The notes under the pieces were generated by a model. It did not search any database. It was not told where the DNA came from and saw nothing but the letters and a program-made list of their open reading frames with translations. Shown here in pieces: positions 26,833 through 64,000 of a DNA stretch of 64,000 bases (position 1 is its first letter; every line of letters starts with the position of its first letter). The DNA is from Vicinamibacterales bacterium (GTDB taxonomy: Bacteria; Acidobacteriota; Vicinamibacteria; Vicinamibacterales; UBA8438), in NCBI GenBank assembly GCA_965220695.1, contig OZ244838.1:2623274-2687273 (forward strand), written 5' to 3'. Made by a program: the position numbers and the translations under genes.

Positions 26833-28011
26833 ATGAGCAGCGCGGCTGCAGCGGATCCCACGGCCCACGTCGCGGGCGATCTGGCGCTCGTGCTGGTCGG
26901 CGGCGGCGCCCGGGCCGCCTATCAGGTCGGTTTCCTGCACGCCCTCATCAAACAGCACCCCGATCTGCAGCTCCCGATCATCACCGGCACGTCGGCGGGG
27001 GCCATCAACGCCGCGTATCTGGCGGCCCAGAGCGGACCGTTGACCGCCGCCATCGACGGGCTGGCCCAGCTCTGGCGCCGCCAGCGTGTGGATCACGTGT
27101 TCCGGGTCGACAACCGTTCGCTCATCAATCATGTCCTGCGCTGGGGCATGAAGCTGGTCTCCGGCGGCGGATCGCTCGCGCCGCAGGTCCAGGGCTTGCT
27201 CGACACCGCGCCGCTGCGGCAGTTTCTGCATGACTGTTTCACACCGGCGGACACCGGTGAGATACCCGGCATCGCCCGCAACATCGCGGCGTGCCGCCTG
27301 CGCGCTCTGGCCATCACCACCAGCAGTTACGATACCGGGCGGTCGGTCATCTGGGTCCAGGGCGCCGATATCGAGGATTGGGAGCGGCCCAACCGTCACG
27401 GCCGCAACACGCGCCTCACGGTCGAGCACATCATGGCCTCGGCCGCGCTCCCGCTGTTCTTCCCCGCCGTCAGACTTGACGACGGGTGGTACGGCGACGG
27501 CGGCATCCGGATGACGGCCCCCTGCTCGCCGGCGATCCATCTCGGCGCCGCACGCATCCTGGCCATCTCCAATCGCCACACGGGCCGGGGCGACGCGGCG
27601 GCGGCGGTGAGCCGCGCCCATCCCCAACCGGCCCTGATTGCCGGGCAGCTCATCCGCACGATGCTGCTGGACGATCTCGATCGGGACGAGTGGAATCTGC
27701 GGCGCCTCAACCGGCTGGTGGACCGCCTGCCGCCCGGCCAGCGCGAGGGGTTGCGCCCAATCGACCTGGTGGTGATCCGGCCGTCATGCGATCTCGGCGC
27801 GCTGACCCGCGAATTCGAGCCGCGCCTGCCGCGCCTGTTCCGTCACCTGACCCGCAGCCTCGGCTCGCGCGAGATGGCCAGCCAGGACCTGCTGAGCCTG
27901 CTGATGTTCCAGGAAGACTACATCGACCGGTTGCTGGCGATCGGCGCGGCGGACGCCGAACGGGAAGCGGACCGGATCGCGGCGCTGCTGGCGGACACGA
28001 ACGAGCCCTGA
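26833..28011 (+). CDS. patatin-like phospholipase
   Basis: 'LVGGGARAAYQVG', 'GTSAGAINA' (GxSxG) and 'YGDGGIR' (the DGG Asp of the catalytic dyad). Confidence 0.8.
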   Translation: MSSAAAADPTAHVAGDLALVLVGGGARAAYQVGFLHALIKQHPDLQLPIITGTSAGAINAAYLAAQSGPLTAAIDGLAQLWRRQRVDHVFRVDNRSLINHVLRWGMKLVSGGGSLAPQVQGLLDTAPLRQFLHDCFTPADTGEIPGIARNIAACRLRALAITTSSYDTGRSVIWVQGADIEDWERPNRHGRNTRLTVEHIMASAALPLFFPAVRLDDGWYGDGGIRMTAPCSPAIHLGAARILAISNRHTGRGDAAAAVSRAHPQPALIAGQLIRTMLLDDLDRDEWNLRRLNRLVDRLPPGQREGLRPIDLVVIRPSCDLGALTREFEPRLPRLFRHLTRSLGSREMASQDLLSLLMFQEDYIDRLLAIGAADAEREADRIAALLADTNEP

Positions 28012-28031
28012 TCGCCAGGCAGGGCGTCCGA

Positions 28032-29378
28032 TCACCCGCGCGGCATCGAGGTCAGACGGAAGCTGTCCATCGCGTCCGGCAGATCGGTCCGGTCGCCGTG
28101 GTCGGCAAGCATCGCGGCGCCCGCCTCGACCCCGGACCGCAGCGCCGTGCCGGTCGACGCGACCGACGGATACGTCCGGTAGTTGCCGGCCAGATACAGG
28201 TTGCGGCAGGTCGTGTCTCGCACGGGCGGGTTCCGATAGCCGGGCCGGAACACCGGCGAGTACATCGGCAGGCGGTTGACCTGCGCCCAGAACGGCTTGA
28301 GGTCGAACCCGAACACCCGCCGGAAATCGGCGCGATATGCATCGAGCACCTCCTCGTCGCTCTGCGCAAAGAAGGCATCGCGGCGGCTCGGGAGATGGCT
28401 CATGATGTTGAGACAGGTGTCCCCCGGCGCCCCGATCGTCGGGTTGAGCGCGTTCAGCGCGAAGATGCCGCAGGCACGGCAATCGAGGGACGCCAGGTTC
28501 ATCCAATAGAACTCGGGGGTGATTCGCTGGCGGGTGGCGAACATCGCCGACACCACGGCGGTATAGCGGATCGCCTCGAGGTCCGCCCGCGCCACGCCGA
28601 GCAGGCGCTCGTAGACTTCGGTCGGCACCGTACTGACGACCAGATCGGTCGTCAACCGCGTGCCGTCGTCGAGTTCCACCGCCGTTACGCGATCGCCGGT
28701 CCGGACCAGACGCGCAGCCGACGTGCCGAGCCGGACGTCGACCGCCCGCCTCGTGAGCAGCCGGGTCACACCGTCGCACAGCACCTTGGTCCAGTTGCAG
28801 CCCGGGATATAGCCGAGCGGCGCCGAACCCTCGCGAAAATACAGGCGTGCGCCCAGCCAGGCCGCGCTGACCTCGTCGCAGGGCCGGTCGAACTTGAGCC
28901 GCGTCAGCGGGTCGAAGATCGCGCGCCGTACGCCAGGACCGGCCCAGGTGTCGATGAGATCGGCGGCGCTTCGCGCGCTCCAGTCGCTCCAGTCGCTCTT
29001 GCCGAAGCAGCGCACCATCAACCGCGCGAAACGCAGCTTGTCCGCCACGCTCATCGGGAATCTGAGGAAGTCGACCGGATGGGCCAAATCGTACAGCCGG
29101 CCGTCGATCCGGAACAGCAGCTTGATCTTGCGCCAGCGCACACGGGCCGCCACGCCGATGTGATCGAGAAAGTAGAGCAATCCCCGGTCGCGGTGCAGGA
29201 TATGGTGATAGGCGAGCGGATAGAATCGACCGCCGGCCTCGAACGTGCCCGCGAGCCCCCCCAGCTGCGGGCCCCGCTCGACGATCGTCACCCGTGTCCA
29301 GCCGGCGCGCGCCGCCGTGTACGCGGCGGCCATGCCGGACAGTCCGCCGCCGAGGACCACGACCCGTGGAGTCGGCAT
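28032..29378 (-). CDS. FAD-dependent oxidoreductase (phytoene desaturase / amine oxidase-like)
   Basis: Start MPTPRVVVLGGGLSGMAAAY (GxGxxG). The ATG shares one nucleotide with the upstream TGA. The longer track ORF N-terminus is non-coding-like. Confidence 0.7.
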   Translation of the reverse strand: MPTPRVVVLGGGLSGMAAAYTAARAGWTRVTIVERGPQLGGLAGTFEAGGRFYPLAYHHILHRDRGLLYFLDHIGVAARVRWRKIKLLFRIDGRLYDLAHPVDFLRFPMSVADKLRFARLMVRCFGKSDWSDWSARSAADLIDTWAGPGVRRAIFDPLTRLKFDRPCDEVSAAWLGARLYFREGSAPLGYIPGCNWTKVLCDGVTRLLTRRAVDVRLGTSAARLVRTGDRVTAVELDDGTRLTTDLVVSTVPTEVYERLLGVARADLEAIRYTAVVSAMFATRQRITPEFYWMNLASLDCRACGIFALNALNPTIGAPGDTCLNIMSHLPSRRDAFFAQSDEEVLDAYRADFRRVFGFDLKPFWAQVNRLPMYSPVFRPGYRNPPVRDTTCRNLYLAGNYRTYPSVASTGTALRSGVEAGAAMLADHGDRTDLPDAMDSFRLTSMPRG

Positions 29379-30466
29379 CAGGCGCGGGGCGGTGACGGCG
29401 GGAGATCCGGGACGCCGGTCCAGCCGTCGATCCACTGCGGGCCATACACCGCGTGGGCGCGGATAGGGCGCCAGTACCGCTCGGCGTATCTCGCCGTCCA
29501 GAGCCGATAGTAGGCTTTCGCCCCCAACAGACAGGCGCGAAAGAGCGGCGTGTCGAAAAAGAGCCGTTTCAGCACCGACCGGCGCAGCAGGTGCTCGACC
29601 ATCGAGACGGTGTTGTGGCGGGCGGGCACGAACGGCACGACCGAGGCTTCGGGCGCCAGTCCCCTGACCTCGATGCGCGCACGGTCGGTGACGCCGATGC
29701 CCCGCTCGGCGCAGCGCTGCAGATGCGGCACCGCCGCCGGGTCGATCCCCATGCAGATCGCCTGCACGGTATCCAGCGCCACCGGGTCGGTCGAACAGAG
29801 GATCCGGTCGGCGAGTCGCGGCCGCCCGGACTTCGGGCCGTTGCCTTCGAGCCCGACAGTGGCATCCATGACGCACAGTGCCGGACGGACGACCTGATTG
29901 AGATCGGACAGCGCGTCGTCGAGCACCAGGTGATATTCGTGGCGCATCCTGTTCAGGCATCCCCACTGGTTCTTGAGCGCCCCCGTGATCACCGTCTTGG
30001 CGTGGGTCTTCATGACCGGCACGGTAATCAGCAGCGTGTCACACAGGATGCGGGGTACCTGCACCTCCTTCAACACCACGTTGCCGGGCATCGCCACCGT
30101 GACGGTCGGCGACCGCTCCATGTTGACCCACTCGACGCCGGTCCGACGGCAGACGGCGGCCATGCCGCTGCGGTGAAACGCCGACTCGACGTCCTCCAGC
30201 ACCTGGTCGGCCTCGACCATGTAGATGGCGCCGACGTGCTCGCGCAACTCCAGGATGAGCGACTCGGCGACCAGGGGGGAGGTGATGGATCCGGGAATGA
30301 ACAGGTCCCAGCCGAGATTGACCTTGAGCGACACGTCGGCGCCGCGGGGAACCGCGCGCCGCCATTCGGCCGCGTCGAGCGCTTGCCGCACCGCGGTTCG
30401 GACATCGTCGACCACCGGCTCGACCGCGACGACGGACCGTGGGCCGTCAGGCAGAAACTCTGACAC
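29378..30466 (-). CDS. DUF362 domain-containing protein with a C-terminal extension
   Basis: 'VSLKVNLGW', 'VPVMKTHAKTVITGALKNQWGCL' and 'DATVGLEGNGP' match the DUF362 pattern as I recall it. Confidence 0.6.
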   Translation of the reverse strand: MSEFLPDGPRSVVAVEPVVDDVRTAVRQALDAAEWRRAVPRGADVSLKVNLGWDLFIPGSITSPLVAESLILELREHVGAIYMVEADQVLEDVESAFHRSGMAAVCRRTGVEWVNMERSPTVTVAMPGNVVLKEVQVPRILCDTLLITVPVMKTHAKTVITGALKNQWGCLNRMRHEYHLVLDDALSDLNQVVRPALCVMDATVGLEGNGPKSGRPRLADRILCSTDPVALDTVQAICMGIDPAAVPHLQRCAERGIGVTDRARIEVRGLAPEASVVPFVPARHNTVSMVEHLLRRSVLKRLFFDTPLFRACLLGAKAYYRLWTARYAERYWRPIRAHAVYGPQWIDGWTGVPDLPPSPPRA

Positions 30467-45717: not shown

Positions 45718-46011
45718 ATGAGTGATTCCGATTCCCCCCGTACGGTGCAGTGCGTGAAGTTCGGGAAGAAGCTCCGGGCGCTGGACGAGCCGCCCTGGCC
45801 GGGTGAGTTGGGACGACGCATCTACGAGAGCGTGTCGGTCGACGCCTGGAAGCTCTGGGAAGAACGGATGAAGATGATCCTCAACGAGTACCGGCTGATG
45901 CCCTGGCAGAAGGAGGCCCAGGAGCTGGTGGCGAAACACATGGAGGACTTCTTCTTCGGCGAAGGGTCGGCGCTGCCGCCCGACTACGTACCGGAGCAGA
46001 GCAAGGCCTGA
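45718..46011 (+). CDS. yggX: Fe(2+)-trafficking / oxidative damage protection protein YggX
   Basis: 'VQCVKFGKKLRALDEPPWPGELGRRIYESVSVDAWKLWEERMKMILNEYRL' is the YggX family pattern. Confidence 0.8.
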   Translation: MSDSDSPRTVQCVKFGKKLRALDEPPWPGELGRRIYESVSVDAWKLWEERMKMILNEYRLMPWQKEAQELVAKHMEDFFFGEGSALPPDYVPEQSKA

Positions 46012-46034: not shown

Positions 46035-47297
46035 TCAGACCACCGGAATCGGCGCATCGATGACGATGCGCAGCGCCGCGTGCGCAGCGCGCAGCGCGTG
46101 CACCGCGTCGTCCGGCTCGGGCGACCGCGCGAATATGAACCCCAGATAGCTGCCGCCCTCCGGCAGCGGTTCGAGCCGCTGGTCCGGCTTGGCGGTCAGG
46201 AGCAGATCGACGACGCCGGGCACCGCCGCCGCAGCGGCCAGGTGCTCGGTGCGGCGATACGTGCCGGCGCGCGGGATCGGAATCATCATCACCGCCGAGG
46301 CGCCCGCCTCACGTCGATACCCACCGGTCGCGCCGCCGAGCGCGTCCCTCAGCAGCAGCTCTTCGAACGACGCGGCGGTTCCGTCATCCGCGCGGAACCA
46401 CAGCGCCCTGGCGCACAGCCCCCCGATCGGCCGCGCCGCCGCCTCGAGCACGAACACCCCGTCGTCGTTGACCCGGCACTCGACGTGCACCGGTCCCTGA
46501 CGCAGACCGAGGGCCGCGAGCGCGGAGGCCACCGCGTGTTCGATCCGCTGCTGCAGGTCGGTGGGGGCTCGGGACGGCGTCACGTAGATCGTCTCCTCGA
46601 AGAAGGGTCCGTCCAACGGATCGGGCTTGTCGAACAGGGCCACGACCCGCAGCCGGCCTTCGTCCACGAGGCCCTCCAAGGCATACTCACGGCCCGGTAT
46701 GAACTGCTCGACGACGACCCGGGACGACGCCGGGTCGCGGCGCTCCCGCAGTTCGCCGCGCGCCAGCAGGCGGCGCACACGCTCCAGTGCCGCCCGCAGC
46801 TCCGCGGGGTCGTCCGCGCGAATGACGCCGCGGCTGCCGGAGAGCGCCAGCGGCTTGACGACGCAGGGAAACGGCAGGTCAGGCGGCAGCGGCGCCGGCA
46901 CGGCGTCAAGCGACAACTCCCGGAACCAGGGGCACGGCAGCCGGGCCGCGGCCAGACAGCGCCGCGTCGCCAGCTTGTCGCCGCTCGCCCGCGCCGCGGC
47001 GGGCGGATGGCCGCGCACACCCAGCCGGTCGGCCGCCAGCGCCGCGAAGAGCGCCGGGCGGTCGCCTACGCCGATCACACCGTCAATCCGCTGGCGCCGC
47101 GCCAGGCGGTCGACCGCGGCCAGAAACCCGGGCTCGTCGTGGAAACGCAGCGGCAGGGCGCCGTCGCGCCAGGGGTCGTCAAGTTGATGGCAGCGGTCGG
47201 TGCCGAACACCAGCTCCACGCCCAGCCGGCCGGCCGCCTCGCCGAACGAGCGGGTCTGATACCCAGTCGTCATCGCGATCAGCAGCACACGCGGCAT
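46035..47297 (-). CDS. ATP-grasp domain protein (carboxylate-amine ligase-like)
   Basis: 420 aa. 'FPCVVKPLALSGSRGVIRADD' and 'VVVEQFIPGREYALEGLV' ATP-grasp core. Its first 11 codons lie within a 60-bp tandem repeat. Confidence 0.75.
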   Translation of the reverse strand: MPRVLLIAMTTGYQTRSFGEAAGRLGVELVFGTDRCHQLDDPWRDGALPLRFHDEPGFLAAVDRLARRQRIDGVIGVGDRPALFAALAADRLGVRGHPPAAARASGDKLATRRCLAAARLPCPWFRELSLDAVPAPLPPDLPFPCVVKPLALSGSRGVIRADDPAELRAALERVRRLLARGELRERRDPASSRVVVEQFIPGREYALEGLVDEGRLRVVALFDKPDPLDGPFFEETIYVTPSRAPTDLQQRIEHAVASALAALGLRQGPVHVECRVNDDGVFVLEAAARPIGGLCARALWFRADDGTAASFEELLLRDALGGATGGYRREAGASAVMMIPIPRAGTYRRTEHLAAAAAVPGVVDLLLTAKPDQRLEPLPEGGSYLGFIFARSPEPDDAVHALRAAHAALRIVIDAPIPVV

Positions 47298-47443
47298 TCA
47301 GGACGCCCTTCGGTCAGACCACGCAGTCGTCATAGCGATCAGCAGCACACGCGGCATTCAGGACGCCCTTCGGTCAGACCACGCAGTCGTCATCGCGATC
47401 AGCAGCACCCGTGGCATACAGGATATTCCGCGGTCAGACCAGA
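47264..47443. repeat. 60-bp tandem repeat x3 spanning the rSAM/ATP-grasp junction
   Basis: Units at 47264-47323, 47324-47383 and 47384-47443. Units 1 and 2 differ at 1 of 60 positions; unit 3 differs at about 9. Each unit carries an ATG plus 11 codons (MPRVLLIAMTT) and the upstream spacer. Confidence 0.9.
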
Positions 47444-48843
47444 GCGACCTGCTCCGGCACAGGCTCGGCTCAGCAGTACCACGGCTCGTTGAGAAACGGC
47501 ACCGCGGCGCGGGTCCGCCCGCCGCCGGTACGGGTTGGCGCGCGCCCGATGCGATCCGCCGTCAGGGCGCACAGCTCCTCGAAGACCACGGACCGCGACG
47601 CGTTGATGCGGCGACCGACCACGGCCGCGGCATCGGCCTGCAACTTGTCGACGCGCGGGTCCCGGTGTCTCCAGGGATAGACGAGACGCGTGGCGTCGAA
47701 CGGTCCGAGCTCGGCCCCCAGCGCGCCGCGGTCGAGGTCGAGCAACCGCGACCCGCGCGGGATCAGCAGCCGCAGCGTCAGTTGGATCGGCGCCACCTCC
47801 GCCACCAGGTCCAGCGCGTCGATGGTGCGCAGCAACTCGACATAGCCGTCGAGCGTCGTCCAGGGCGTGAACGGGATGAAGGTCGGCGCCAACGCCAGTC
47901 CGAGATCCCGGCAGCGGCCGACGACGAACTCGAAATCGGCGCGGGTATGCCCCTTGTCCAACAGGTCCAGCACGGCGTCATCGATCGACTCGACCGCCGT
48001 CACCACGAACAGGCAGCCGGTGTCCCGCAGTCTGGCCAGGTGCCGCTCGTGGCGCCTGAGATGCTCGACCTTGATCGTGACGTCATAGGTGACGGAGGGA
48101 AACTCGCGATCGAACGCGTCGACGAGCGCGACCGCGTGCCCCGGACCGTTGAAGAAATCGGGGTCGCCGAAAGTGATGTGCTGCGCCCCGGCCTCGACCT
48201 GCGCCCGCACGTCGGCCAGCACGACGTCCAGAGGAATCACGCGGAACCGGCCGCCGTAGACCGGCACCACCGGACAATGCCGGCACAGATGCCTGCAGCC
48301 CCGGCTGGCCTCGGTATAGCCGGCGACGCGCCGGGCGCCGTCGGGCGTCTGCAGGGACGCGTAGCGCGCCAGCGGCGGCAGCCCCGCGCGGTCCGGCGTA
48401 CGGAACCGCAGCCGCGGCACGCCCCCGACGCCCGCGGCGGGGACAGCGGGGGCACGCGGCCGGCCGCAGGCCAGGTCGAGCAGGTCCTGCTCGAACTCGC
48501 CCCCCAGCACATCCTGCACGCCAAGGTCGCGCAGCAACGTGGCGTTCAGCGGGGCGTACAGGCCATAGCCGCAGAGCCGCGCCGCCGGCGCCAGCGCACG
48601 CACCCGGCGAATCACCGGGACGGCGAGCCGCGTGGCGGTGTGCATCGGCAGATGAAACGCGATGAGGTCGCTCTCGAACGCCTCGGGGCGGAACGGTTCG
48701 CGAGACAGGTCGACGGTCGTGACCTGCACGCCCGCCTCGCGCAGCCAGGCCGCCGGCGACGCCAACCCGAACGGCTGGTGCCCCAACTCGTAGGTCGCCA
48801 CCAGCGTGGTCCGCCGGTTCGCGTCCGCCCCGGCCGTGGTCAC
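47434..48843 (-). CDS. radical SAM protein (B12-binding-like N-terminus) with a C-U-A-E-P tail; in-frame UGA at 47470-47472 is probably selenocysteine
   Basis: CxxxCxxC 'GCRHLCRHC'. GTG start overlaps the symporter TGA (GTGA). The ORF reads ...PFLNEPWYC-TGA-AEPVPEQVALV-TGA. A SECIS-like hairpin lies 13 nt downstream of the first TGA. Confidence 0.75.
47439..47457 (-). promoter_or_regulatory. candidate bacterial SECIS hairpin
   Basis: mRNA CCGGAGC-AGGUC-GCUCUGG: a 7-bp stem (one G.U pair) and a 5-nt loop containing GGU. It spans +13 to +31 after the UGA. Confidence 0.5.
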
Positions 48844-50270
48844 GCCCGCCCCACGTGCAGCGCGGCGACCTCCGCGTCGGTCTGCGGCGGGGTCAGCAGG
48901 CTGACGACGACCAGCGTGGCAATCGACAGGGTCAGCGCCGGATACGCCGTCTCGAGACCGAGCGGATAGGCAGCCACCCCATCGACGCCGCGCACCAGCC
49001 CCGCAATCTCCCAGATCAGCGTCGTGAGCATGCCGGCCAGGATCGACGCGACGCCGCCCCAGCGGGTCGCCCGGCGCCAGAGCAGCGCCCCCAGCAGCGC
49101 CGGCGTGATGCCGGCGCCGTACATGGTGTATGCCCACAGGGCCATCGCCAGGATGGACGGAAAGAAGCTGCCCGCGACGTAGCCGAGGCCCCCGAGCACG
49201 GCCACTGCCATCCGCGTGTAGATGATCACCTGGCGGTCCGTGGCGCCGGGGTTGAGGAACCGCTGGTAGACGTCGCGAATCAGGTTGGTCGACGGGGTCA
49301 GCAGGAAGCTGTTGGCGGTCGAGACGATGATGGCGGCCGCCCCGCACACCAGCACCACCCCCACGAACGGGGGCAGGACGTCGGTCGCCACCCGGATCAC
49401 GATCTCCTCGGACTGCGCAACGCTCAGGCCGGGCATGATCGTGCTGGCGAGGATGCCGGTCGAGTCGATCAACGTCTCGACCACGATGGTGCCGAGAATC
49501 CACGCCACGACCGCGGTGCGTGCGGCCCGTTCGTCGCGGGCGGAGAAGAACTTCTGGTACATGTTCGCTTCGCCGAGCAGCAGGAACATCGTCGGCAGAA
49601 AGAGCGCCAGCGACGCCTGCGGTCCGAGCGTCCCGAACAGCGAGACCTGATCGGGCCGCAGCGCCGCCACGGACGCACCCACGCCGCCGGCGTCCCCGAC
49701 CATGAACAGGACCGCCAGCATCACGCCGACCGTCATCAGAATGCCATTCCCCACGTCGAGATAGGCAATCGACAGCATGCCGGCCAGCGCCGTGAACGCC
49801 ACACAGAACATCATCGTGAAGAGCGCGCCGGTGTCGGGGTCCACGCCCGCGACCGCCGCCAGCAGGCGCCCGCCGCCGCGGAACTGGTAGGCGGCGATGG
49901 TGGCGTAGGCCAGCACCGTCGTCACGGTGCCGAGCACCCGCGCGGCCGGACCGTAGCGCAGCTCCAGAATGTCAGGCACCGTGTACTGTGCGATGCGCCG
50001 CACGCGGGGCGCGATGAAGAAGACGAGGGCAATCCCCACCCAGGCGCCCGCCGACTGCCAGAGCGCCGGAAACCCGGCGCGATACCCCAGCCCGGCCCCG
50101 GCGAACAGACTGCCCGACCCGATCCAGGTGGCCAGCAGCGTGAACACGAGCACACGCGCCGGCAGCGTGCGGCCGGCGACGAGGAAGTCGTCACTGGTCT
50201 TGACACGCCGGCTGCGGTACAAGCTGACCAGCACCAGGATGGACAGATAGAGGAGGACCGCGGTGCGCAT
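48840..50270 (-). CDS. sodium:solute symporter (SSS family)
   Basis: 476 aa with about 13 TM segments. 'DDFLVAGRTLP......LLATWIGSGSLFG.AGLGY' SSS signature. Confidence 0.85.
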   Translation of the reverse strand: MRTAVLLYLSILVLVSLYRSRRVKTSDDFLVAGRTLPARVLVFTLLATWIGSGSLFAGAGLGYRAGFPALWQSAGAWVGIALVFFIAPRVRRIAQYTVPDILELRYGPAARVLGTVTTVLAYATIAAYQFRGGGRLLAAVAGVDPDTGALFTMMFCVAFTALAGMLSIAYLDVGNGILMTVGVMLAVLFMVGDAGGVGASVAALRPDQVSLFGTLGPQASLALFLPTMFLLLGEANMYQKFFSARDERAARTAVVAWILGTIVVETLIDSTGILASTIMPGLSVAQSEEIVIRVATDVLPPFVGVVLVCGAAAIIVSTANSFLLTPSTNLIRDVYQRFLNPGATDRQVIIYTRMAVAVLGGLGYVAGSFFPSILAMALWAYTMYGAGITPALLGALLWRRATRWGGVASILAGMLTTLIWEIAGLVRGVDGVAAYPLGLETAYPALTLSIATLVVVSLLTPPQTDAEVAALHVGRA

Positions 50271-54063: not shown

Positions 54064-55023
54064 ATGAGCTACGAGGTTGACGAGACACCGCCGCCGGTCC
54101 GGACGCTGCGCCCCGCCGATGCGCTGGGCGGTGCGTTTGTCGGCTGGGCCCTGGCGTCGACCTGCGTGGGGTGGTGGCTCGCGACCCGCGCATCGATCGT
54201 GCCCTGGGCCGCGGGGCAGGCGGTCCTGGCGGCGGCGTTCCTGCAGTGGTTCGCGCTGTTGCACGAGTGCGGGCACGGGACGCTTTTCCGTACACGGCGG
54301 TTGAACACCCTCGTCGGTTCGGTCGCCGGGTTCTTCGCGCTGATCCCGTTTCGCTGCTGGAAGCCGATTCACGCGCGTCACCACAAGTGGACCGGGTGGC
54401 AGGATCTCGATCCGACCACCGCCGCGCTCGTGCCGCGGCCCCTGGGTCGTGTCGAACGATTCATCGTCAACGTCTGCTGGCGATACTGGATCCCGATCTT
54501 CTCGGTCCTTTATCGGGTAAGCAATTTCTGGAATCTGGCCCGGCTGCACCGGCTGATCGGCGCGAAGCCGGCCATGGCCCGCGCGATGGTCGTAGAGACC
54601 GCGGCGCTGGCGGCGGCCGGCGCCGCCCTGGTCGTCGCGCTGGGCCCGGCCGCGCTCGCCCGCAGCGCGGGCCTGGCCCTGGTGCTGGCGTTCGTAGTCG
54701 AGGACGTCATCATCCTCAGCCAGCACACCCACGTGCCGATGGGTCTGAGCCACGGCCGGGACGTGGCGCCGTACGGCGCGCTGGCCCAGGGACCGTTCAC
54801 CCGCTCGCTCCGGTTCCCGGGCTGGCTGTCACGGATGCTGCTGCACGTCGATGCACACGAGCTCCATCACATGTATCCCGCGGTGCCGGGGTATCGGTTG
54901 CGGGAGATCGGGCATCCGGCGCTGAACGAGGTGGGGTGGGCGGAATGGGTGCCGGCGGCGCGCGCGGTCCCCGGCGAGGTGTTCCTGTTCCAGAACCGCA
55001 ATCAGTCGGGGTTCGACGTATGA
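54064..55023 (+). CDS. membrane fatty acid desaturase family protein
   Basis: GGGTGAGG RBS. Three His boxes: HECGH, HARHH and HELHH. Confidence 0.8.
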   Translation: MSYEVDETPPPVRTLRPADALGGAFVGWALASTCVGWWLATRASIVPWAAGQAVLAAAFLQWFALLHECGHGTLFRTRRLNTLVGSVAGFFALIPFRCWKPIHARHHKWTGWQDLDPTTAALVPRPLGRVERFIVNVCWRYWIPIFSVLYRVSNFWNLARLHRLIGAKPAMARAMVVETAALAAAGAALVVALGPAALARSAGLALVLAFVVEDVIILSQHTHVPMGLSHGRDVAPYGALAQGPFTRSLRFPGWLSRMLLHVDAHELHHMYPAVPGYRLREIGHPALNEVGWAEWVPAARAVPGEVFLFQNRNQSGFDV

Positions 55024-55613
55024 CCGCCGCGGCCCTGCATCCGGTGGCGTGCGGCCTCTTCCTGGTGACCGCCTTCACGCTGTCCGGCCTGGCTCACACT
55101 GCGTGGCTGGCGGCGCCCCGCTCGCGGCGTTTCGCGGTGCCGCTCGACGGCGGACGCGTGCTCGGCGGCCGCCGGATCTTCGGCGATCACAAGACGGTGC
55201 GCGGCCTGCTGGTGATGGTGCCCGCCACCGGCGTCAGCTTCGCGCTGCTGGCGGTGCTGCTGGCGGCGGGACCGGGTATCGCGGCGTCCGGGCTGTGGGC
55301 GTTGTCGCCGGCGGCCTACAGCCTGCTCGGGACGTGGGCCGCGCTGGGCTTCATGGCCGGCGAACTGCCCAACTCGTTCATCAAACGCCGGCTCGGCATC
55401 CCGCCGGGTGCGGCGGCGAGGGGCCGGCGTCTGCGGGCGGTCTGTCTTGTCGCGGACCGGCTCGACTCGAGTGTGGGCATGCTGCTCGCGTTGGCGCTCG
55501 TCGTGCCGTTGTCCTGGCGCATCTGCCTGTTCGTGCTGCTCGCCGGACCGCTGATGCATGCGGCGTTCAGCGTCGCCCTGTTCCGTCTGCGGGTGAAGGC
55601 GAGGGCGGCATGA
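55020..55613 (+). CDS. CDP-archaeol synthase (CarS/DUF46)-like membrane protein
   Basis: ATGA overlap. 197 aa with about 5 TM segments. 'FGDHKTVRG', 'ELPNSFIKRRLGIPPG' and 'DRLDS' resemble CarS-family motifs. Assigned from memory of the family pattern. Confidence 0.5.
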   Translation: MTAAALHPVACGLFLVTAFTLSGLAHTAWLAAPRSRRFAVPLDGGRVLGGRRIFGDHKTVRGLLVMVPATGVSFALLAVLLAAGPGIAASGLWALSPAAYSLLGTWAALGFMAGELPNSFIKRRLGIPPGAAARGRRLRAVCLVADRLDSSVGMLLALALVVPLSWRICLFVLLAGPLMHAAFSVALFRLRVKARAA

Positions 55614-58372
55614 CCGGACCGGCCGCGGTCCTGCCCGACCAGAACTCGACACCGCCCTACGGCGCGTCCGAGCGTCCGCTGATCGTCCCGTTGGGGCAAG
55701 CCCTCGATGAGCGGCAGGCCGGTGGAAAGGCATCGAACCTCTCGACGCTGATCAGCCTTGGCGCGCCGGTGCCGTCGGGGTGCGTGCTGACCTGCGAGGC
55801 ATTTGGCCGATTCCTCGCGGTCGATCGGCTCGGCGCCAGGATCCACACGCTGCAGCGTCGACTCGATCCCCTGGACCCGGCCCGCAGGCGGGAGGTCTCG
55901 CGGGAGATCGGCGCGCTGGTGCGCAGCGGATCGCTGCCGGCCGACATGACGCAGGCGCTCGACGCCGTCCTGCGCGAGTTGCCGGCGGATGCCAGGCTGG
56001 CCGTGCGCAGCTCCGCAGTGGGAGAAGACGGCGCCGCGGCGTCGTTCGCCGGCCAGTTCGATTCGGTGCTGCACATCGCCAACGCGGACGCGCTGCAGCG
56101 CGCGGTGCGCACCTGCTGGGCGTCGTACTGGTCCGAGCGATCGATCTACTATCGAGCCGCGCGTCAGGCCGCGCTCGGCGGGATGGCGGTGGTCCTCCAG
56201 CGGCAAGTGGCCGCCCGCGTGTCGGGTGTGCTCTTCACCCGCGCCCCGGCCGGTACGCCGTCGGCCGCGGGTGACGATCTGGTGATCGAGTGCTGCCGCG
56301 GCCTGGCGGATCGGCTGGTGTCGGGACAGGTCGATCCTGCACGTCTCGTCGTGCCGCGTGACGAGGCGACGGCGACCGGAGCCGTGCCCGCGATCGACGG
56401 CCTGCTGACCGCGGCGGACGTCCACGCCCTGAGCGGACTGGCGCTGCGCCTCGAACGGGAGCTGGGCGCGCCGCAGGACATCGAGTGGAGCATCGACGAC
56501 GACGGGCGGCTCTGGATTCTCCAGACCCGGCCGATCACCACCGCCGCGCGTGCCGCGACCCCGACCGGCGGCAGATCGGTGCTGTGGTCGAACGCCAACG
56601 TCAACGAGAACTTTCCCTCGCCGATCTCTCCGCTGCTCTACTCGTTCGCAGCCCCGGGGTACTACCACTACTTCAGGAATCTCGGTCTGGCATTCGGGCT
56701 CTCCCGCCGCCGCCTGGCCGCGATGGACAACGCGCTGACCGCGATCATCGGCGTGCATGGCGGGCGGATGTACTACAACCTGACCAGCATCCACGCGGTG
56801 CTGCGGATGGCGCCCTGCGGCGACCATCTTGCGCAAGCGTTCAATCAGTTCGTCGGTGCGGACCAGGTCGCCCCCTCCCCCGCCGGCGCAGCGCAGTGGA
56901 GAGACGGGCGCGGCCGCACCGCCCGCTCGCTCGAACTGCTCCGCATCGCCGCCCGCACGACGTGGCAGTATCTGTTTCTGCGGCGGCGGCTGGCCGCGTT
57001 CGAAGATCGAGCGGACCGTTACGCAGACCGCACCCGGCCCGAACTGCTCGAGCGCCGGCCGTTGCCCGAGCTGCTAGCAGACCTGCGGTCGTTTCTCGAT
57101 ATCCGTTTCCACCGTTGGAAGGACGCCTCGCTCGCCGACACCGGGGCGATGATCTGCTACGCGTTGCTGCAACGCGCGCTCGCGAACGTCGATACGCGCG
57201 GCGGTCTGCACAATCGGCTGTTGCGGGCCTTGCCCGGTGTGCCGTCCACGATGCCGCCGCGGCGTCTCTGGGCGCTGTCGCGCCTGATCCGCTCGGACGT
57301 GCAGTTGGACCGGCTGTTCCGGAGCGCCGAGACCCCGGCCATTCTGGACGCGCTCCGTAGCGACGATCGGTTCGTCACCTTCCGGCAGGCATTCGACCGT
57401 TTCCTCGACGACTGGGGTTTCCGTTCGTCGGCCGAGCTGATGCTGACCGTCCCGAGCCTGCAGGAGGACCCCGCGCCGGTGATCGAGCTGCTCAAGCAGT
57501 ACGCCATCAGCGACGGCGAGCCGTTGGAGTCGGTGATGTCGCGTCAAGCCGCCGAGCGCGTGGCAGAGACGGCGCGGGTCGTCACCGGGCTGGCCCGGCG
57601 GTCCCCGGTCAAGGCGCTCGCAGTCCTGGCGTTGCTGCGATTGACGCAGACCACCGTCGCCTTCCGCGAACGGGCGCGGCTGAAGCAGGCGTTGCTCTAC
57701 ACCCGGCTGCGGCGTGTCGCGCTGGCGATCGGCCGCCATTTCGCCGACGCCGGGCATCTGTCGACAGCGGACGACATCTTCATGCTGACCTGGCAGGAGA
57801 TCGACGAGCTCGGGACAGGTCGTGCGATGTTTCCCTATCGCGTCCCTGACCTGGTCGCGCTGCGGCGGCAGGAGCAGGTGACGCTGGAGGCCATGCGGCC
57901 GTCCGCGACCATCACCCTGCCGCTCGGCGAGTACCTGCCGCCCGGGTCGAGGGCCGGCCGGCGCGGACCGCTTGACCGGCCCGGCGCAGCGCTGCCCGCG
58001 GCCTCGACGCTGCGCGGCACCGGCGCGTCGGGCGGCGTCGCCTGCGGTCCTGCGACGGTGCTCGGCGATGTGCGTGACGCCGCCCGTCTGCGCCGCGGCG
58101 ACGTGCTGGTGACCCGCCAGACCGACCCGGGCTGGGCGCCGGTGTTCGGACTGGTGTCGGGGCTCGTGATCGAACGCGGCGGACTCCTCTCGCATGGGGC
58201 GATCGTCGCGCGGGAGTTCGGTCTGCCCTGCGTCATCGGGATCGAGCACGCCACCGACACCATCCGGTCGGGTCAGCGGGTCACGGTCGATGGCGACCGC
58301 GGCATCTGCACGATCGAGCGGACGGCAGCGGAGGACGCCGCGGTGTCCGCGGGACAGCGAGGCGCCGCATGA
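55610..58372 (+). CDS. PEP-utilising-enzyme family protein (PPDK_N ATP-grasp N-terminus, long middle region, C-terminal swivel phospho-His domain)
   Basis: ATGA overlap. 'GGKASNLSTL', 'AVRSSAVGEDGAAASFAGQFDS' and 'IEWSIDDDGRLWILQTRPIT' at the N-terminus. 'GASGGVACGPA...LVTRQTDPGWAPVF....GLVIERGGLLSHGAIVAREFGLPCV' at the C-terminus. Confidence 0.8.
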   Translation: MTGPAAVLPDQNSTPPYGASERPLIVPLGQALDERQAGGKASNLSTLISLGAPVPSGCVLTCEAFGRFLAVDRLGARIHTLQRRLDPLDPARRREVSREIGALVRSGSLPADMTQALDAVLRELPADARLAVRSSAVGEDGAAASFAGQFDSVLHIANADALQRAVRTCWASYWSERSIYYRAARQAALGGMAVVLQRQVAARVSGVLFTRAPAGTPSAAGDDLVIECCRGLADRLVSGQVDPARLVVPRDEATATGAVPAIDGLLTAADVHALSGLALRLERELGAPQDIEWSIDDDGRLWILQTRPITTAARAATPTGGRSVLWSNANVNENFPSPISPLLYSFAAPGYYHYFRNLGLAFGLSRRRLAAMDNALTAIIGVHGGRMYYNLTSIHAVLRMAPCGDHLAQAFNQFVGADQVAPSPAGAAQWRDGRGRTARSLELLRIAARTTWQYLFLRRRLAAFEDRADRYADRTRPELLERRPLPELLADLRSFLDIRFHRWKDASLADTGAMICYALLQRALANVDTRGGLHNRLLRALPGVPSTMPPRRLWALSRLIRSDVQLDRLFRSAETPAILDALRSDDRFVTFRQAFDRFLDDWGFRSSAELMLTVPSLQEDPAPVIELLKQYAISDGEPLESVMSRQAAERVAETARVVTGLARRSPVKALAVLALLRLTQTTVAFRERARLKQALLYTRLRRVALAIGRHFADAGHLSTADDIFMLTWQEIDELGTGRAMFPYRVPDLVALRRQEQVTLEAMRPSATITLPLGEYLPPGSRAGRRGPLDRPGAALPAASTLRGTGASGGVACGPATVLGDVRDAARLRRGDVLVTRQTDPGWAPVFGLVSGLVIERGGLLSHGAIVAREFGLPCVIGIEHATDTIRSGQRVTVDGDRGICTIERTAAEDAAVSAGQRGAA

Positions 58373-59933: not shown

Positions 59934-60748
59934 GCGAACCCGCCGCCACGACCCCGCGGGCGAACGGTCTGCGGCGCTGCCGCGTGGTCGCGCTGGCGGT
60001 CGTCAGTGGCGTGCTCATCAGCGCGGCCGCCCTGGCGCTCGTTCCGGTCGCCTGCCTGACGCTGTGTCGGGCGCGCCGCCTGTACACGCGCGTGGCGACC
60101 CTCGCCGCGCGGGCGGTCCTTCGCATCTGGGGCATCCGGGTGGTCGTCCATCAGGACCAACCGTTCCCGGCCGAACAGACCGTCTATGTCGCGAATCACT
60201 CGTCGACGATCGACCTGTTCGTGCTGGTGGCGCTCGGTCTGCCGAATACCCGGTTCTTTCTGGCCGGGCATCTCCGCTGGTTCGTGCCGCTGGGGTTCAT
60301 CGCGCAGCTCATGGGGACGTTCTTCACGGCCCCCCAGCACCGGCCGGCGGTTCGTGTGCGGATCTTCCAACGGGCCGACCGCGCGCTGCGCCGGACCGGA
60401 GAATCGGTGTTCCTGAGCCCCGAGGGGGCGCGCATCACGACCGGCGAGATCGGTCACTTCAACAAGGGCGCGTTCCATCTGGCCACCAGTCTCCGGGCGC
60501 CGATCGTTCCGCTCTACTTCAAGATTCCTCCCGAGATCGATCCGGGCCTCGGGTACGACGCGCGGCCGGGCACCGTGCGCGTCCACGTCAAGCCGCGGAT
60601 CGACACAACCGGCTGGCGGCTCGACGAGCTCGCGTCGAACGTAGGCGCTGTCCGCCGACAGTTCATCCACTGGCACCACGAACACCGGGGAGCAACACAT
60701 GTTCGACCCAGTCAGCACCCATCGGTCCTCTCCGCCGCCGCGTCATGA
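59930..60748 (+). CDS. lysophospholipid (1-acyl-sn-glycerol-3-phosphate) acyltransferase, PlsC-like
   Basis: ATGA overlap, GGAGG RBS. HX4D 'NHSSTID', 'FLSPEGAR' and 'PIVPL'. Confidence 0.8.
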   Translation: MSEPAATTPRANGLRRCRVVALAVVSGVLISAAALALVPVACLTLCRARRLYTRVATLAARAVLRIWGIRVVVHQDQPFPAEQTVYVANHSSTIDLFVLVALGLPNTRFFLAGHLRWFVPLGFIAQLMGTFFTAPQHRPAVRVRIFQRADRALRRTGESVFLSPEGARITTGEIGHFNKGAFHLATSLRAPIVPLYFKIPPEIDPGLGYDARPGTVRVHVKPRIDTTGWRLDELASNVGAVRRQFIHWHHEHRGATHVRPSQHPSVLSAAAS

Positions 60749-62627
60749 ACGGTGGCCGCCGGTCGCGCCGTCCTCTGCGTCCGTGCGTGGCCCGGCGCGC
60801 GGCACCGCCTTCGCCGGCAGGTCGCTGGTCGAGCTGCTGCGGTTCCGGGCCCGTGTGCAGCCGGACGAGCAGGCCTTCGTCTTTCTCCGTGACGGCGAGT
60901 ACGAAAGCGACGTGGTCAGCTACGCCGAACTCGACCGCCGCGGCCGGATGCTCGCCGCGCATCTCCAGCGCCGCGTACCGCCGGGCGCCAGGGCGCTGTT
61001 GCTCTATCCGCCCGGTCTGGAGTTCATTGCGGCGTTCTTCGGATGTCTGTACGCGCGGGTGGTGGCGGTACCCGTCTTCCCGCCGAGATGGCGCGCGCCC
61101 GACCGCAACCTCGCGCGGGCGATCGCGATCGCCGAGGACGCGACACCGGACGTCGTGCTGAGCACGACCGAGACGGCCGAACGGTGGGCGCACGCGGTGG
61201 CCGATGGGACGGCGCCGCGGCTCGCGACCGCCGCCCGCGGGGGGCAGGCTGGCGACGGGGCGGCGGCCTGGGTGGCGACCGACGCGCTCGATGAACCGTC
61301 CCTGCCGGCATGGTCGGATCCCGGTCCGGACCGGCGCACGCTGGCCTTCCTCCAATACACCTCCGGCTCGACCGCGGCCCCGCGGGGCGTGATGGTCAGC
61401 CACGGCAACCTGCTGCACAACCTTTCGTACGCGTTCCGCCAGGCCGGCAACGACCGATCGTCGGTGTCGGTCTCGTGGCTTCCGGTCGAGCACGACATGG
61501 GGCTCATCGATGGCGTGCTGCAACCCGTCTACAGCGGGTGTCCGGCCTATCTGATGTCACCGACCGCATTCCTGCAGCGACCGGTCCGGTGGCTGCGAGC
61601 GATTGCCAGATACCGGGCGACGCGCAGCGGCGCCCCGAACTTCGCGTACGACCTGTGCGTGCGCCGCATCGCAGCCGATGAGCGGGCGGCGCTCGATCTG
61701 CGGAGCTGGCGTGACGCCTACAACGGGGCGGAGCCGATCCGCCGGGACACCCTCGAACGGTTCGCCGCCACGTTCGCGGACAGCGGCTTTCGACCGACCG
61801 CGTTCCGGCCCTGCTACGGCCTGGCCGAAGCGACGCTGCTGGTGACGAGCGGCCGCTACGGCGCCGGCGCGGCGCGGCGATCACCCGCTGCGGCCGCCGC
61901 GGTTGGCGCGGCCGGCGTCTCCTGCGGACGCCCGGACGGCGGGACAACGGTCATCGTTGTCGATCCCGGAAGCCGTCATCGTTGCGCGGACGGCGTGGTC
62001 GGCGAGGTCTGGGTTCAGGGGCCGGGCGTCGCCGCCGGCTACTGGAACCGACCCGCGCACTCGGCACGTTCGTTCGCCGCCCGCACGGCCGACGGCCGTG
62101 GCCCGTTCCTGCGGACCGGAGACCTGGGTGTCATCGGCAGGCGCGGTCTGCAGATAACCGGTCGTCTGAAGGACGTGCTGATCGTCCGGGGCACGAAGCA
62201 CTACCCACAGGATCTGGAGCGCACCGCCGAAGGTCTGCATGACGCCGTCAGGCCCGGCTGCGTCGCCGCCTTCGGGGTCGGCCGCGGTGTGTCCGGGGAC
62301 CGCATCGCCCTCGTCGCCGAAGTCGATCGGCACGCGCTCGCCGCACCCGATGCGGCCCACGAGGCGATCGCCGCCATTCGGCGCGGCACGACCGACGCGC
62401 ACGGCGTCCAGGTCAGCGCGGTCACGCTGGTCGAGCCGGGGGGCGTCGAGAAGACCACCAGCGGGAAGGTGCGCCGGTTCGCCTGCCGCGACGCGCTGCT
62501 GGCCGGGACGCTGGCCGTCGTCGCGTGCTGGCGCCAGCCGACCGCGCATCAGGCTCGCGCCGCCAACACGCCGCCGTCTCCGGTCGAGTTCGCGGCCGAT
62601 GTCGCACAGGAGCTGGCATGCCCGTGA
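60699..62627 (+). CDS. fatty acyl-AMP ligase (FAAL)
   Basis: GGGGAG RBS 7 nt before ATG 60699 (50-nt overlap with plsC-like). 'LAFLQYTSGSTAAPRGVMVSHGNLLHN', 'YGLAE' and 'TGDLG' motifs. Ends without a carrier domain. Confidence 0.8.
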   Translation: MFDPVSTHRSSPPPRHERWPPVAPSSASVRGPARGTAFAGRSLVELLRFRARVQPDEQAFVFLRDGEYESDVVSYAELDRRGRMLAAHLQRRVPPGARALLLYPPGLEFIAAFFGCLYARVVAVPVFPPRWRAPDRNLARAIAIAEDATPDVVLSTTETAERWAHAVADGTAPRLATAARGGQAGDGAAAWVATDALDEPSLPAWSDPGPDRRTLAFLQYTSGSTAAPRGVMVSHGNLLHNLSYAFRQAGNDRSSVSVSWLPVEHDMGLIDGVLQPVYSGCPAYLMSPTAFLQRPVRWLRAIARYRATRSGAPNFAYDLCVRRIAADERAALDLRSWRDAYNGAEPIRRDTLERFAATFADSGFRPTAFRPCYGLAEATLLVTSGRYGAGAARRSPAAAAAVGAAGVSCGRPDGGTTVIVVDPGSRHRCADGVVGEVWVQGPGVAAGYWNRPAHSARSFAARTADGRGPFLRTGDLGVIGRRGLQITGRLKDVLIVRGTKHYPQDLERTAEGLHDAVRPGCVAAFGVGRGVSGDRIALVAEVDRHALAAPDAAHEAIAAIRRGTTDAHGVQVSAVTLVEPGGVEKTTSGKVRRFACRDALLAGTLAVVACWRQPTAHQARAANTPPSPVEFAADVAQELACP

Positions 62628-64000
62628 CGGTGGAAGGCGCAACGGTCAAGGAAGTGCGGAGCCGGGTGAGCGCAGTCGTCGCCGGCTGTCTCGGGGTTGC
62701 CCCCGCGGAGATCGACCCGCGTGAACCGCTGGCGCTGTATGGCCTCGACTCCCTGCGTGCGATCGAGCTCGGCGCGGGGCTGGAAGATGCCTTCGACCGG
62801 CCGCTGCCGGATGCGCTCCTGGCCGGCCAAGCGAGCATCGATGCGCTGGTCGGCATGCTGGACGATGGCGGGCCGTACCCGCGCGCCCGGGATGCCGGCC
62901 GCGCGCGCGCCCAGATGCGGGCGGACGGCGTGCTGCCGTGCGACATCCGCCCTGGCGCCGTGCCGACACCGGCGTCGCCAGCCCGCTGCGTCCTGCTCAC
63001 CGGCGCCACCGGGTTTCTGGGCGCACATCTCCTCAAGACGCTGCTGACGGACACCGGCGCGGAGGTCCTGTGTCTCGTGCGGGACAGTGGATCAGGCGCC
63101 GACCCGGCGCGCCGGGTGCGTCGCAACCTCGAACAATACCGTCTGTGGGACCACGCCTTCGGCAGCCGCGTGCACATCGTGACCGGCGATCTCTCGCAGC
63201 CGGGACTCGGGCTCACCGCCCAGACGCGCGCGACGATTGGATCGACCGTCGACGCCGTCTACCACGCTGCGGCCGACGTCAACTGGGTCTCCCCGTACGG
63301 CGCGCTGCGCGCCGCCAACGTCGTCGCCACCCGGGACCTGATCCGGTTGGCCTGTCAGGGCCGGCCGACGGCGTTCCACTTCATCTCGAGTCTCGCGGTC
63401 TGCCACGCCGCCGGTCGACGGCGCGCCGTCACCGAGGACGACGACCTGTTCGCGAGCATCGAGCGGCTGCCGATCGGGTACGCCCAAAGCAAGTGCGTCG
63501 CCGAGGCGCTGGTGCGTCAGGCGCAGGCGCGCGGGCTGCGCACCACGATCCACCGGCCCGCCCTGCTCAGCGGCGATGCCGTCACCGGTGTCTCGAAGCA
63601 CGACGACCTCGTGTCCTCGTTGTTCAAGGGCTGCATTCAGATGGGGATGGCGCCCGACCTCGATTGGCGGATCGATGCGATACCGGTCGACCAGGCGGCG
63701 CGGGCCATTGTGCACCTGACGGCCGACGCTCCCCGCGGATGCGACCGCTTTCACGAGAACGCGCGTCAGGCGCGGCACTGGCGCGAGTCCGTCCTCTGGA
63801 TGAACCTGTTCGGCTATCCAGTCGCGCTCGTGCCATACGACCGCTGGATCGACGAGCTTGCCCGAACCGCCGTGTCGGCGGATCATGCCCTGCATCGCAT
63901 GCGCGGGTTCTTTCTGAGACGCTGGACGGATGGATCGACCATTCCGGAGCTGTATCAGGAGACCCGCTGCAGCGCCCCCCGCAGCGAGCGGACACAGGCA
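62618..64000 (+). CDS. acyl carrier domain fused to a thioester reductase (NAD_binding_4) domain; 3'-partial at the window edge
   Basis: Absent from the ORF track (no stop in the window). AGGAG RBS, ATG 62618 overlapping the FAAL stop. 'LYGLDSLRAIEL' (PP-binding Ser), 'LLTGATGFLGAHLL' and 'YAQSK'. The frame stays open to 64000. Confidence 0.8.
   Translation, partial: MPVTVEGATVKEVRSRVSAVVAGCLGVAPAEIDPREPLALYGLDSLRAIELGAGLEDAFDRPLPDALLAGQASIDALVGMLDDGGPYPRARDAGRARAQMRADGVLPCDIRPGAVPTPASPARCVLLTGATGFLGAHLLKTLLTDTGAEVLCLVRDSGSGADPARRVRRNLEQYRLWDHAFGSRVHIVTGDLSQPGLGLTAQTRATIGSTVDAVYHAAADVNWVSPYGALRAANVVATRDLIRLACQGRPTAFHFISSLAVCHAAGRRRAVTEDDDLFASIERLPIGYAQSKCVAEALVRQAQARGLRTTIHRPALLSGDAVTGVSKHDDLVSSLFKGCIQMGMAPDLDWRIDAIPVDQAARAIVHLTADAPRGCDRFHENARQARHWRESVLWMNLFGYPVALVPYDRWIDELARTAVSADHALHRMRGFFLRRWTDGSTIPELYQETRCSAPRSERTQA

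Follow-up and report, generated by a model that had tools for sequence, protein, structure and literature searches.

A radical SAM gene with an in-frame UGA

The DNA analyzed here is a 64,000-nucleotide stretch of contig OZ244838.1 from a Vicinamibacterales bacterium (assembly GCA_965220695.1), referred to below as the window, and our subject is a minus-strand gene for a radical S-adenosylmethionine (SAM) enzyme in which an in-frame UGA codon is very probably read as selenocysteine (Sec). The full-length gene occupies positions 47434-48843 and comprises 469 codons, the Sec codon included, followed by a final TGA at 47434-47436. It starts with a GTG at 48843 that overlaps the TGA stop of an upstream symporter gene as GTGA. 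The open reading frame (ORF) from this GTG reads ...AAVPFLNEPWYC and then reaches a TGA at 47470-47472, the codon of residue 458, with Cys457 (TGC, 47473-47475) directly before it. Beyond this TGA the frame stays open for a further 11 codons (47437-47469, minus strand), A-E-P-V-P-E-Q-V-A-L-V. Translation reproduced what a preliminary description of this DNA had stated, namely that the called ORF ends at the TGA at 47470-47472 and that the frame runs on through this peptide to the TGA at 47434-47436.

To place the protein in a family, it was scored in a profile search with U written as C. The results showed a match of 589.7 bits (cutoff 500) to NF040546, with residues 14-467 aligned to profile positions 3-467 of 468 and the tail covered, and a match of 47.6 bits to the Pfam Radical_SAM model (PF04055); the B12-binding model PF02310 gave 22.1 bits, below its gathering score of 32.1. 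The CxxxCxxC motif of the radical SAM [4Fe-4S] cluster was located by alignment at 48274-48297 on the minus strand (C183-R-H-L-C187-R-H-C190). C183, C187 and C190 are invariant in our alignments A1 and A5, and the motif is kept in 55 of 56 distant family representatives. NF040546 is the CUAEP/CCAEP-tail family, an uncharacterized protein with a rare Cys-Sec (CU) dipeptide, and this dipeptide is found elsewhere mainly in metal or organometal proteins (Haft preprint, 10.1101/2022.07.06.499078). The name 'CUAEP/CCAEP-tail radical SAM (seleno)protein', which the preliminary description had given, is that of this real family. The window protein shares with it the CxxxCxxC motif, the [ED]PW[YF]-C-[UC]-AEP tail and the alternation of Sec and Cys, with no structural difference, and the window gene is a further member of this selenoprotein family. 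The existence of NF040546 and its selenoprotein status were already known, being both curated and published. The family is absent from the list given in a 2026 review of the prokaryotic selenoproteome, and our literature search found no paper on its function.

Public records hold the shorter form of the protein. In the European Nucleotide Archive (ENA), the exact 457-residue product is recorded for two contigs of the metagenome assembly ERZ25067264, one 863,799 bp long and the other above 1 Mb. Among the best 120 database homologues, 89 end at ...W[YF]C, 29 go on as ...WYCCAEPNPEQLTLV, and none is written with U. A Cys-form homologue, P0087, ends ...YCCAEPNPEQVALV (CCAEPNPEQVALV), and beyond the Cys/Sec its tail agrees with that of the window protein at 10 of 11 positions. 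Of the proteins that represent clusters at 50% identity, 553 match at E ≤ 1e-30; since 31 of the 82 full-length cluster representatives stop at the C and 33 read CCAEP, about half of the family appears to use Sec. The megaplasmid of Thermomicrobium roseum DSM 5159 (NC_011961.1, 796591-798027) carries a TGA form in which GCG GAG CCG and a hairpin follow, and the gene for WP_012643191.1 in the plasmid collection's gene table also stops at the Sec-position TGA. The expectation that gene callers would truncate the protein is thus borne out by the ENA record, by the 89 shortened homologues and by the T. roseum entry.

Conservation across the UGA and the hairpin behind it

We next considered whether the codons behind the TGA are conserved among orthologs. 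A scan of one genome per species yielded 80 loci, to which the window was added. Most of the loci belong to Acidobacteriota (Vicinamibacterales, Terriglobia, Acidiferrales, Bryobacterales) and the remainder to Verrucomicrobiota, Chloroflexota, Methylomirabilota, Eisenbacteria and Dormibacterota. The motif C-[U/C]-A-E-P, at 47461-47475 in the window, is common to all 80 loci with the gene end present. The Cys/Sec codon is TGA in 55 sequences (54 loci and the window) and TGC or TGT in 25 loci. In both forms the upstream Trp and Cys and the downstream Ala-Glu-Pro are invariant, and only two sequences have Phe in place of Tyr. Ala-Glu-Pro follows the TGA in 55 of 55 sequences while its codons vary (GCG, GCC, GCA or GCT for Ala, GAG or GAA for Glu, all four CCN codons for Pro), Gln stands at +7 in 53 of the 55, and the following stop lies at +11 codons in 30 of the sequences and at +25 in another 20. 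Given the fixed Ala-Glu-Pro, the conserved Gln and the fixed positions of the stop, these data indicate purifying selection on a translated tail, which is incompatible with termination at the UGA. The preliminary description had pointed to two comparisons as informative, whether Cys aligns with the UGA in CCAEP-tail homologues and whether close homologues end naturally at ...WYC. Cys does align with it, as TGC or TGT in the 25 loci and in the 29 of the best 120 homologues that read ...WYCCAEP..., and no natural ending at WYC was seen, the DNA running TGA-GCN-GAR-CCN in all 55 TGA forms. As a side observation, the Cys codon before the UGA is TGT in 43 of the 55 Sec forms, and the Cys forms have TGC in 21 of 25; the TGT bias may mean that a U directly 5′ of the UGA is preferred where this codon is recoded.

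The hairpin of the selenocysteine insertion sequence (SECIS) type lies at 47438-47458 on the minus strand, with the 5′ arm G-CCGGAGC at 47458-47451, the loop AGGUC at 47450-47446 and the 3′ arm GCUCUGG-U at 47445-47438. With the U of the UGA counted as 1, CCGGAGC at 16-22 pairs with GCUCUGG at 28-34 around the AGGUC loop at 23-27; one of these seven pairs is G-U, and RNAfold adds an eighth, G15-U35. The spacing from the UGA is 11 nt to the stem and 19 nt to the loop. RNAfold returned the hairpin as the minimum free energy (MFE) structure of a 33-nt segment, at -13.0 kcal/mol, so that the 7-bp stem CCGGAGC-AGGUC-GCUCUGG of the preliminary description was recovered both in the letters and in the predicted fold. 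The E. coli fdhF SECIS likewise has an AGGUC loop, and its minimal stem begins 11 nt after the UGA. The consensus for bacterial SECIS elements (bSECIS) that we applied, a published set of four criteria (PMC13188914), describes a stem of 4-16 bp, a loop of 3-9 nt with G within its first two positions, 16-37 nt between UGA and loop, and an MFE of -7.5 kcal/mol or lower. The window hairpin falls within all four, having a stem of 8 bp, a loop of 5 nt with G at position 2, a UGA-to-loop distance of 19 nt and the MFE given above. It is like bacterial SECIS elements in its place in the coding region just after the UGA, in its small apical loop with G and then G or U, and in its spacing and MFE, but it differs in that the short stem lies within the last 11 codons of the gene and has no evident bulged U, and in that the family has a second class with an AGUU tetraloop. 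The hairpin was also considered as an intrinsic terminator, and this was rejected since no T-run follows it and there is no terminator-like site.

Every TGA form was found to have a hairpin at this fixed site, in one of two registers. The register of each sequence was chosen by the best fit of the two, and the Cys-form control was given the same choice. In the 31 sequences of class A, which include the window, the loop has five nucleotides (AGGUG, AGGUC or AGUUG, for example) and the tail is mostly 11 residues long; in the 24 sequences of class B, an AGUU tetraloop sits one register away and the tail mostly has 25 residues. The results showed that 89.4% of the cells are paired in class A, with 28 double-change cells, and 89.3% in class B, with 11 double-change cells, and that in neither class were any of 500 shuffles as good. 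When the 3′ partner was slid as a control, pairing dropped to 31-58%. In the 25 Cys forms the same columns are 42-45% paired, which is their own shuffle level. Pairing in the better register averaged 6.25 of 7 in the Sec forms versus 3.60 of 7 in the Cys forms (Mann-Whitney p = 4e-12), and the mean MFE was -12.0 versus -6.7 kcal/mol (p = 5e-11) at similar G+C content. Conservation of the hairpin in UGA-bearing orthologs, on which the preliminary description had made its proposal depend, is therefore seen as compensatory change in the UGA orthologs, and the hairpin is absent from the Cys orthologs. The T. roseum hairpin, GGACCC-GUC-GGGUCC, is a third variant with a GUC triloop.

Several observations weigh against the decoding of this UGA as Sec. 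The 33-nt window hairpin is not more stable than dinucleotide shuffles of itself (25 of 200 fold as well, z = -1.15), and a 57-nt segment of the window prefers another fold (z = -0.06). The window DNA has 69% G+C, and a stop-free extension of 11 codons is unremarkable in such DNA. As both the window-only fold statistics and the extension are at the level of chance, the case for recoding rests on the comparison across sequences. The machinery of Sec decoding was not found nearby: the 64-kb window contains no tRNA detectable by ARAGORN and no selA, selB or selD in family scans of about 48 ORFs, and the 10-kb flanks of 81 related loci contain no tRNA-Sec by ARAGORN and no selA, selB or selD. A tblastn search with an E. 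coli SelD probe found no match in the window or the flanks of the loci; because the probe is 98.8% identical to the real E. coli selD, this negative is meaningful, for the searched flanks only. At gathering thresholds Rfam gave no match anywhere in the window, a null that is uninformative for SECIS elements since, to our knowledge, Rfam holds no general bacterial SECIS model. On the side of recoding, Acidobacteria as a phylum are documented users of selenoproteins.

Together, the comparative data make it highly probable that the TGA at 47470-47472 is decoded as Sec by means of the SECIS hairpin, and that the product is an NF040546 radical SAM enzyme of 468 residues rather than 457; the Sec interpretation of the preliminary description is supported. 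In the mechanism that we propose, the 8-bp hairpin within the last 11 codons would recruit SelB with Sec-tRNA(Sec) while the UGA is in the ribosomal A site, and the recoded product would end ...NEPWY-Cys457-Sec458-AEPVPEQVALV. Under a shortage of selenium or of the decoding machinery, termination would be expected to yield the 457-residue form, lacking half of the conserved pair.

Three other accounts of the TGA were weighed. There is a small chance that the UGA is recoded to Cys or to some other residue, either by a Cys tRNA of the selC* type or by an acidobacterial allo-tRNA acting as a suppressor. Such a tRNA(Cys) exists in anaerobes, Acidobacteria have allo-tRNAs that are possible nonsense suppressors, and Cys is functionally acceptable at position 458, being encoded there in 25 loci; however, selC* has been reported in anaerobic Firmicutes, Thermodesulfobacteria, Nitrospirae and Proteobacteria and not in Acidobacteria, the hairpin fits the SelB-type bSECIS consensus, and the family is curated as a selenoprotein. 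Only a very slight chance attaches to the UGA being a genuine stop, with a protein ending ...WYC and a hairpin and open frame that are incidental to G+C-rich DNA. The 25 shuffles that match the window hairpin, the failure to find Sec machinery within 64 kb and the 457-residue form recorded in all databases would agree with a stop, but the retention of Ala-Glu-Pro in all 55 orthologs despite synonymous changes, the 25 loci that place Cys in the same column and then continue into the same tail, the covariation of the hairpin in TGA forms only and the inclusion of the tail in the curated family model speak against it. That the TGA arose through an error in sequencing or assembly, or by recent pseudogenizing mutation of a TGC or TGT Cys codon, is scarcely credible. 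The source is a long-read metagenome assembly, and indels distinguish the window from the near-identical contig L081, but L081, an independent contig, encodes the identical 457-residue product with the same TGA and 54 other genomes have TGA at this codon. On the subject of unusual tRNAs, ARAGORN reported in one acidobacterial metagenome-assembled genome an 88-nt 'tRNA-???' with an irregular anticodon loop (L042, 15636-15723), a few kilobases from a Cys-form gene, and this may be one of the allo-tRNAs described in Acidobacteria.

Neighboring genes

The genetic context of the radical SAM gene shows a conserved downstream partner. On the same strand at 46035-47297 lies a gene for a 420-residue ATP-grasp protein of the L-amino-acid-ligase type (Pfam ATP-grasp_4, LAL_C2 and ATPgrasp_N), whose best relative among solved structures is the L-amino acid ligase BL00235 (3vot, E = 7e-35). 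An ATP-grasp gene stands immediately downstream on the same strand in 63 of the 71 loci with enough sequence, comprising 22 of 22 Cys forms and 41 of 49 Sec forms; its start lies a median of about 120 nt beyond the Sec/Cys codon, where the tblastn match ends. The ATP-grasp gene is adjoined in the window by a plus-strand gene at 45718-46011 for a YggX-type Fe(2+)-trafficking and oxidative-damage-protection protein (PF04362, 105 bits; NF003817, 109 bits); a YggX-type gene has this position in 61 of the 80 loci, and in 55 of the 66 with at least 3.2 kb of downstream sequence. The upstream gene, at 48840-50270 on the minus strand, belongs to the sodium:solute symporter family (PF00474) and is translationally coupled to the radical SAM gene. 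A symporter is found upstream in only 9 of the 80 loci, all of them Vicinamibacterales-like. Symporter and CofD/YvcK-like genes were considered as members of the pathway and rejected, as they are lineage-specific, occurring in only 9 and 14 of the 80 loci, respectively.

At the junction of the radical SAM and ATP-grasp genes, Tandem Repeats Finder and a repeat search identified three tandem copies of a 60-nt unit (47261-47440), with 100, 97, and 83% identity to the reference copy. The repeat array reaches into the end of the tail, covering its last codons, and into the hairpin, where it takes in the outermost pairs of the 3′ arm. Each copy contains the last two radical SAM codons and the stop, a spacer, and an ATG with about the first 12 ATP-grasp codons, and only the copy with its ATG at 47297 enters the real ATP-grasp gene; the other two form decoy ORFs of 19 codons (the middle one reads MPRVLLIAMTTAWSDRRAS and then stops). 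In relatives the junction occurs once, and its gap is about 3 nt. The fact that one copy is only 83% identical argues for a real, older duplication, but the triplication may also be an artifact of long-read assembly. Contig L081 (11360-11620) shows many small indels relative to the window, some of which fall within the 60-nt repeats, together with an additional duplication of 20 nt where the ATP-grasp gene starts; given these indels, gene models around the junction may carry frameshift errors in either assembly.

Elsewhere in the window, three long overlapping plus-strand ORFs occupy three frames at 23924-29510 (23924-26731, 25681-28011 and 27486-29510), and the one of them that was scanned had no NCBIfam match; they may be one giant gene broken by frameshifts, or chance open frames of G+C-rich DNA. 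A gene resembling phosphoenolpyruvate synthase and rifampin phosphotransferase at 54926-58372, and a fatty-acyl-AMP ligase with a carrier/thioester-reductase protein, resembling nonribosomal peptide synthetase genes, at 60645-64000, appear unrelated.

Architecture, the ArsL relationship and possible function

To obtain a view of the protein fold, the AlphaFold model of the Cys-form homologue P0087 was used, which has a mean predicted local distance difference test (pLDDT) score of 86.7 and a predicted template modeling (pTM) score of 0.87. The parts of low confidence are the inter-domain linker and the last 25 residues or so, over which pLDDT drops from 71 to 39. Among solved structures, the fold comes closest to that of the radical SAM dehydratase AprD4 (TM-score 0.66) and next to those of TsrM and OxsB, two enzymes that contain cobalamin; a sequence search of the PDB gave AprD4 and MgmA alone, as weak matches. 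AprD4 carries a B12-binding-like domain without cobalamin. The architecture is an N-terminal Rossmann B12-binding-like domain, a radical SAM barrel with the CxxxCxxC motif, a variable linker of low confidence and a conserved C-terminal tail. Conservation of Cys or Sec across the whole family is confined to the three cluster ligands and the C457-C/U458 pair. All close relatives have C277 and C311, but only 38 and 13 of 56 distant members, respectively, keep them, and for this reason a role of the tail as an auxiliary Fe-S ligand or as the partner in a disulfide with the core was disfavored. Because only the cluster ligands and the tail pair are conserved throughout, a tail that acts directly at the active site is favored.

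Other proteins offer partial parallels. Thioredoxin reductase (GCUG), MerA (CC) and HgcB/MerT (CC/CU) likewise have an adjacent Cys-Sec or Cys-Cys near a flexible C-terminus that reaches an internal active site, but their folds and cofactors are unrelated to those of the window protein and the likeness is one of analogy only. ArsS/TIGR04167 is also a radical SAM family with Sec members and is in the prokaryotic selenoproteome list, but it differs by its GxxU motif and the position of its Sec, and it has no significant match to the window protein.

The closest characterized relative, by a wide margin, is the ArsL family (NF040542), the radical SAM protein of arsinothricin biosynthesis, which sequence comparison identifies as a sister family. 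Its model was second best on the window protein with 239.1 bits, the next family scoring 37 bits. A Priestia protein with an RCCLKC tail shares 33% identity with the window protein over 405 residues and as far as the same core boundary, after which the tails diverge, both being Cys-rich. The two-domain core is shared, with matching motifs HxTFxDxDFFN, YDxTxxVxH, PTFIxFxPWT and WxHxDP, but the ArsL tail has about 20 residues and ends in CCxxC whereas that of the window protein has about 55 and carries the Cys-Sec pair. ArsL cleaves SAM to give a 3-amino-3-carboxypropyl radical that attacks As(III) held by the C-terminal CCxxC, and deletion or mutation of its tail abolishes arsenic binding and C-As bond formation while SAM cleavage stays. 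On the Priestia aryabhattai plasmid pB2.1 (L083, 2623-7996), the RCCLKC gene adjoins an aquaporin gene with ArsR nearby. The same plasmid region has an ATP-grasp gene about 2 kb upstream of the RCCLKC gene, 21% identical to the window ATP-grasp protein (E = 2e-12); this sequence match hints that a ligase partnership may be common to both sister radical SAM families.

Given that ArsL is the closest relative, that the tail pair is conserved family-wide, that tail and linker have low pLDDT and that an ATP-grasp gene follows in 63 of 71 loci, we propose tentatively, and by analogy, that the enzyme may work by ArsL-like chemistry, with another soft atom borne on the Cys-Sec arm, and hand an amino-acid-like product to the ligase. 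The flexible tail would present the atom, held by the vicinal thiolate and selenolate, to a SAM-derived radical at the cluster, and the product would then pass to the co-transcribed ATP-grasp enzyme, which is of the L-amino-acid-ligase type. Arsenic is unlikely to be the substrate, since the gene is not accompanied by ars genes: no arsM, arsQ, arsR or arsenite channel is present among the scanned window genes or the conserved neighbors of the 80 loci.

The missing ars genes also count against a function modeled on ArsL, and so do several other results. The NF040542 score is below that model's cutoff of 450, with positions 2-407 of 423 aligned and the tail unmatched; the RCCLKC/CCxxC motif is absent from the window tail and from the 82 full-length representatives; the window tail gives two soft ligands versus three; and no methyltransferase is linked as a conserved neighbor. 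Eight loci lack the ATP-grasp gene, and their neighbors are heterogeneous. No common theme was found among these eight, whose genes include a betaine-type ATP-binding cassette transporter, an MsrP-like molybdenum oxidoreductase, an arginase, a GFO oxidoreductase and one methyltransferase. At the T. roseum locus (L082) the neighbors are a major facilitator superfamily transporter, a large GNAT acetyltransferase and a pyridoxal phosphate-dependent aminotransferase, with no ATP-grasp gene. We know of no sequence signature for the cleavage of SAM to methylthioadenosine together with a 3-amino-3-carboxypropyl radical.

The main alternative role for the tail, which we regard as rather doubtful, is that of a redox-active selenenylsulfide that would swing into the active site with electrons or a hydrogen atom and be re-reduced by a cellular thiol system, in the manner in which thioredoxin reductase uses its GCUG tail, or ribonucleotide reductase its C-terminal Cys pair. 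The vicinal Cys-Sec does lie on a C-terminus that is of low confidence in the model and flexible, Sec is typical of redox sites, and the dehydratase chemistry of AprD4, the closest solved fold, requires a reduction step by a partner enzyme. Against such a role, no second Cys pair for exchange is conserved in the core (C277 in 38 and C311 in 13 of the 56 distant members), ArsL as the closest characterized relative binds its substrate atom by a Cys tail, and the CU dipeptide occurs elsewhere mainly in metal and organometal proteins.

Carrying the proposal of ArsL-like chemistry on a tail-held atom further, NF040546 could be an ArsL-type non-canonical radical SAM family that forges a C-Se, C-S or C-metalloid bond on that atom and, together with the ligase, makes a so-far-unknown methionine- or glutamate-like amino acid or dipeptide; in this specific form we consider it unlikely, and put it forward as a speculation.

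What is new here is the covariation for two SECIS classes, the sister relationship to ArsL, the conservation of Cys/Sec in the tail only, the ligase partner and the truncated T. roseum entry. The public record miscalls the window gene as 457 residues, and does the same for about three quarters of its closest database relatives; such truncated models drop the Sec, which is half of the only conserved Cys/Sec pair beyond the iron-sulfur cluster motif. Sec use in about half of the sequence clusters of a family is an unusually high fraction. T. roseum, a cultured and aerobic member of the lineages with the Sec form, could serve as a practical organism for proof. Taken with the ligase partner and with a Cys/Sec pair conserved only in the tail, the relationship to ArsL leads to a concrete question, namely which soft atom and which SAM-derived radical are involved. 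If the bond-forging proposal is true, the pathway would be widespread in soil Acidobacteriota and would occur also in Chloroflexota, Verrucomicrobiota and other phyla.

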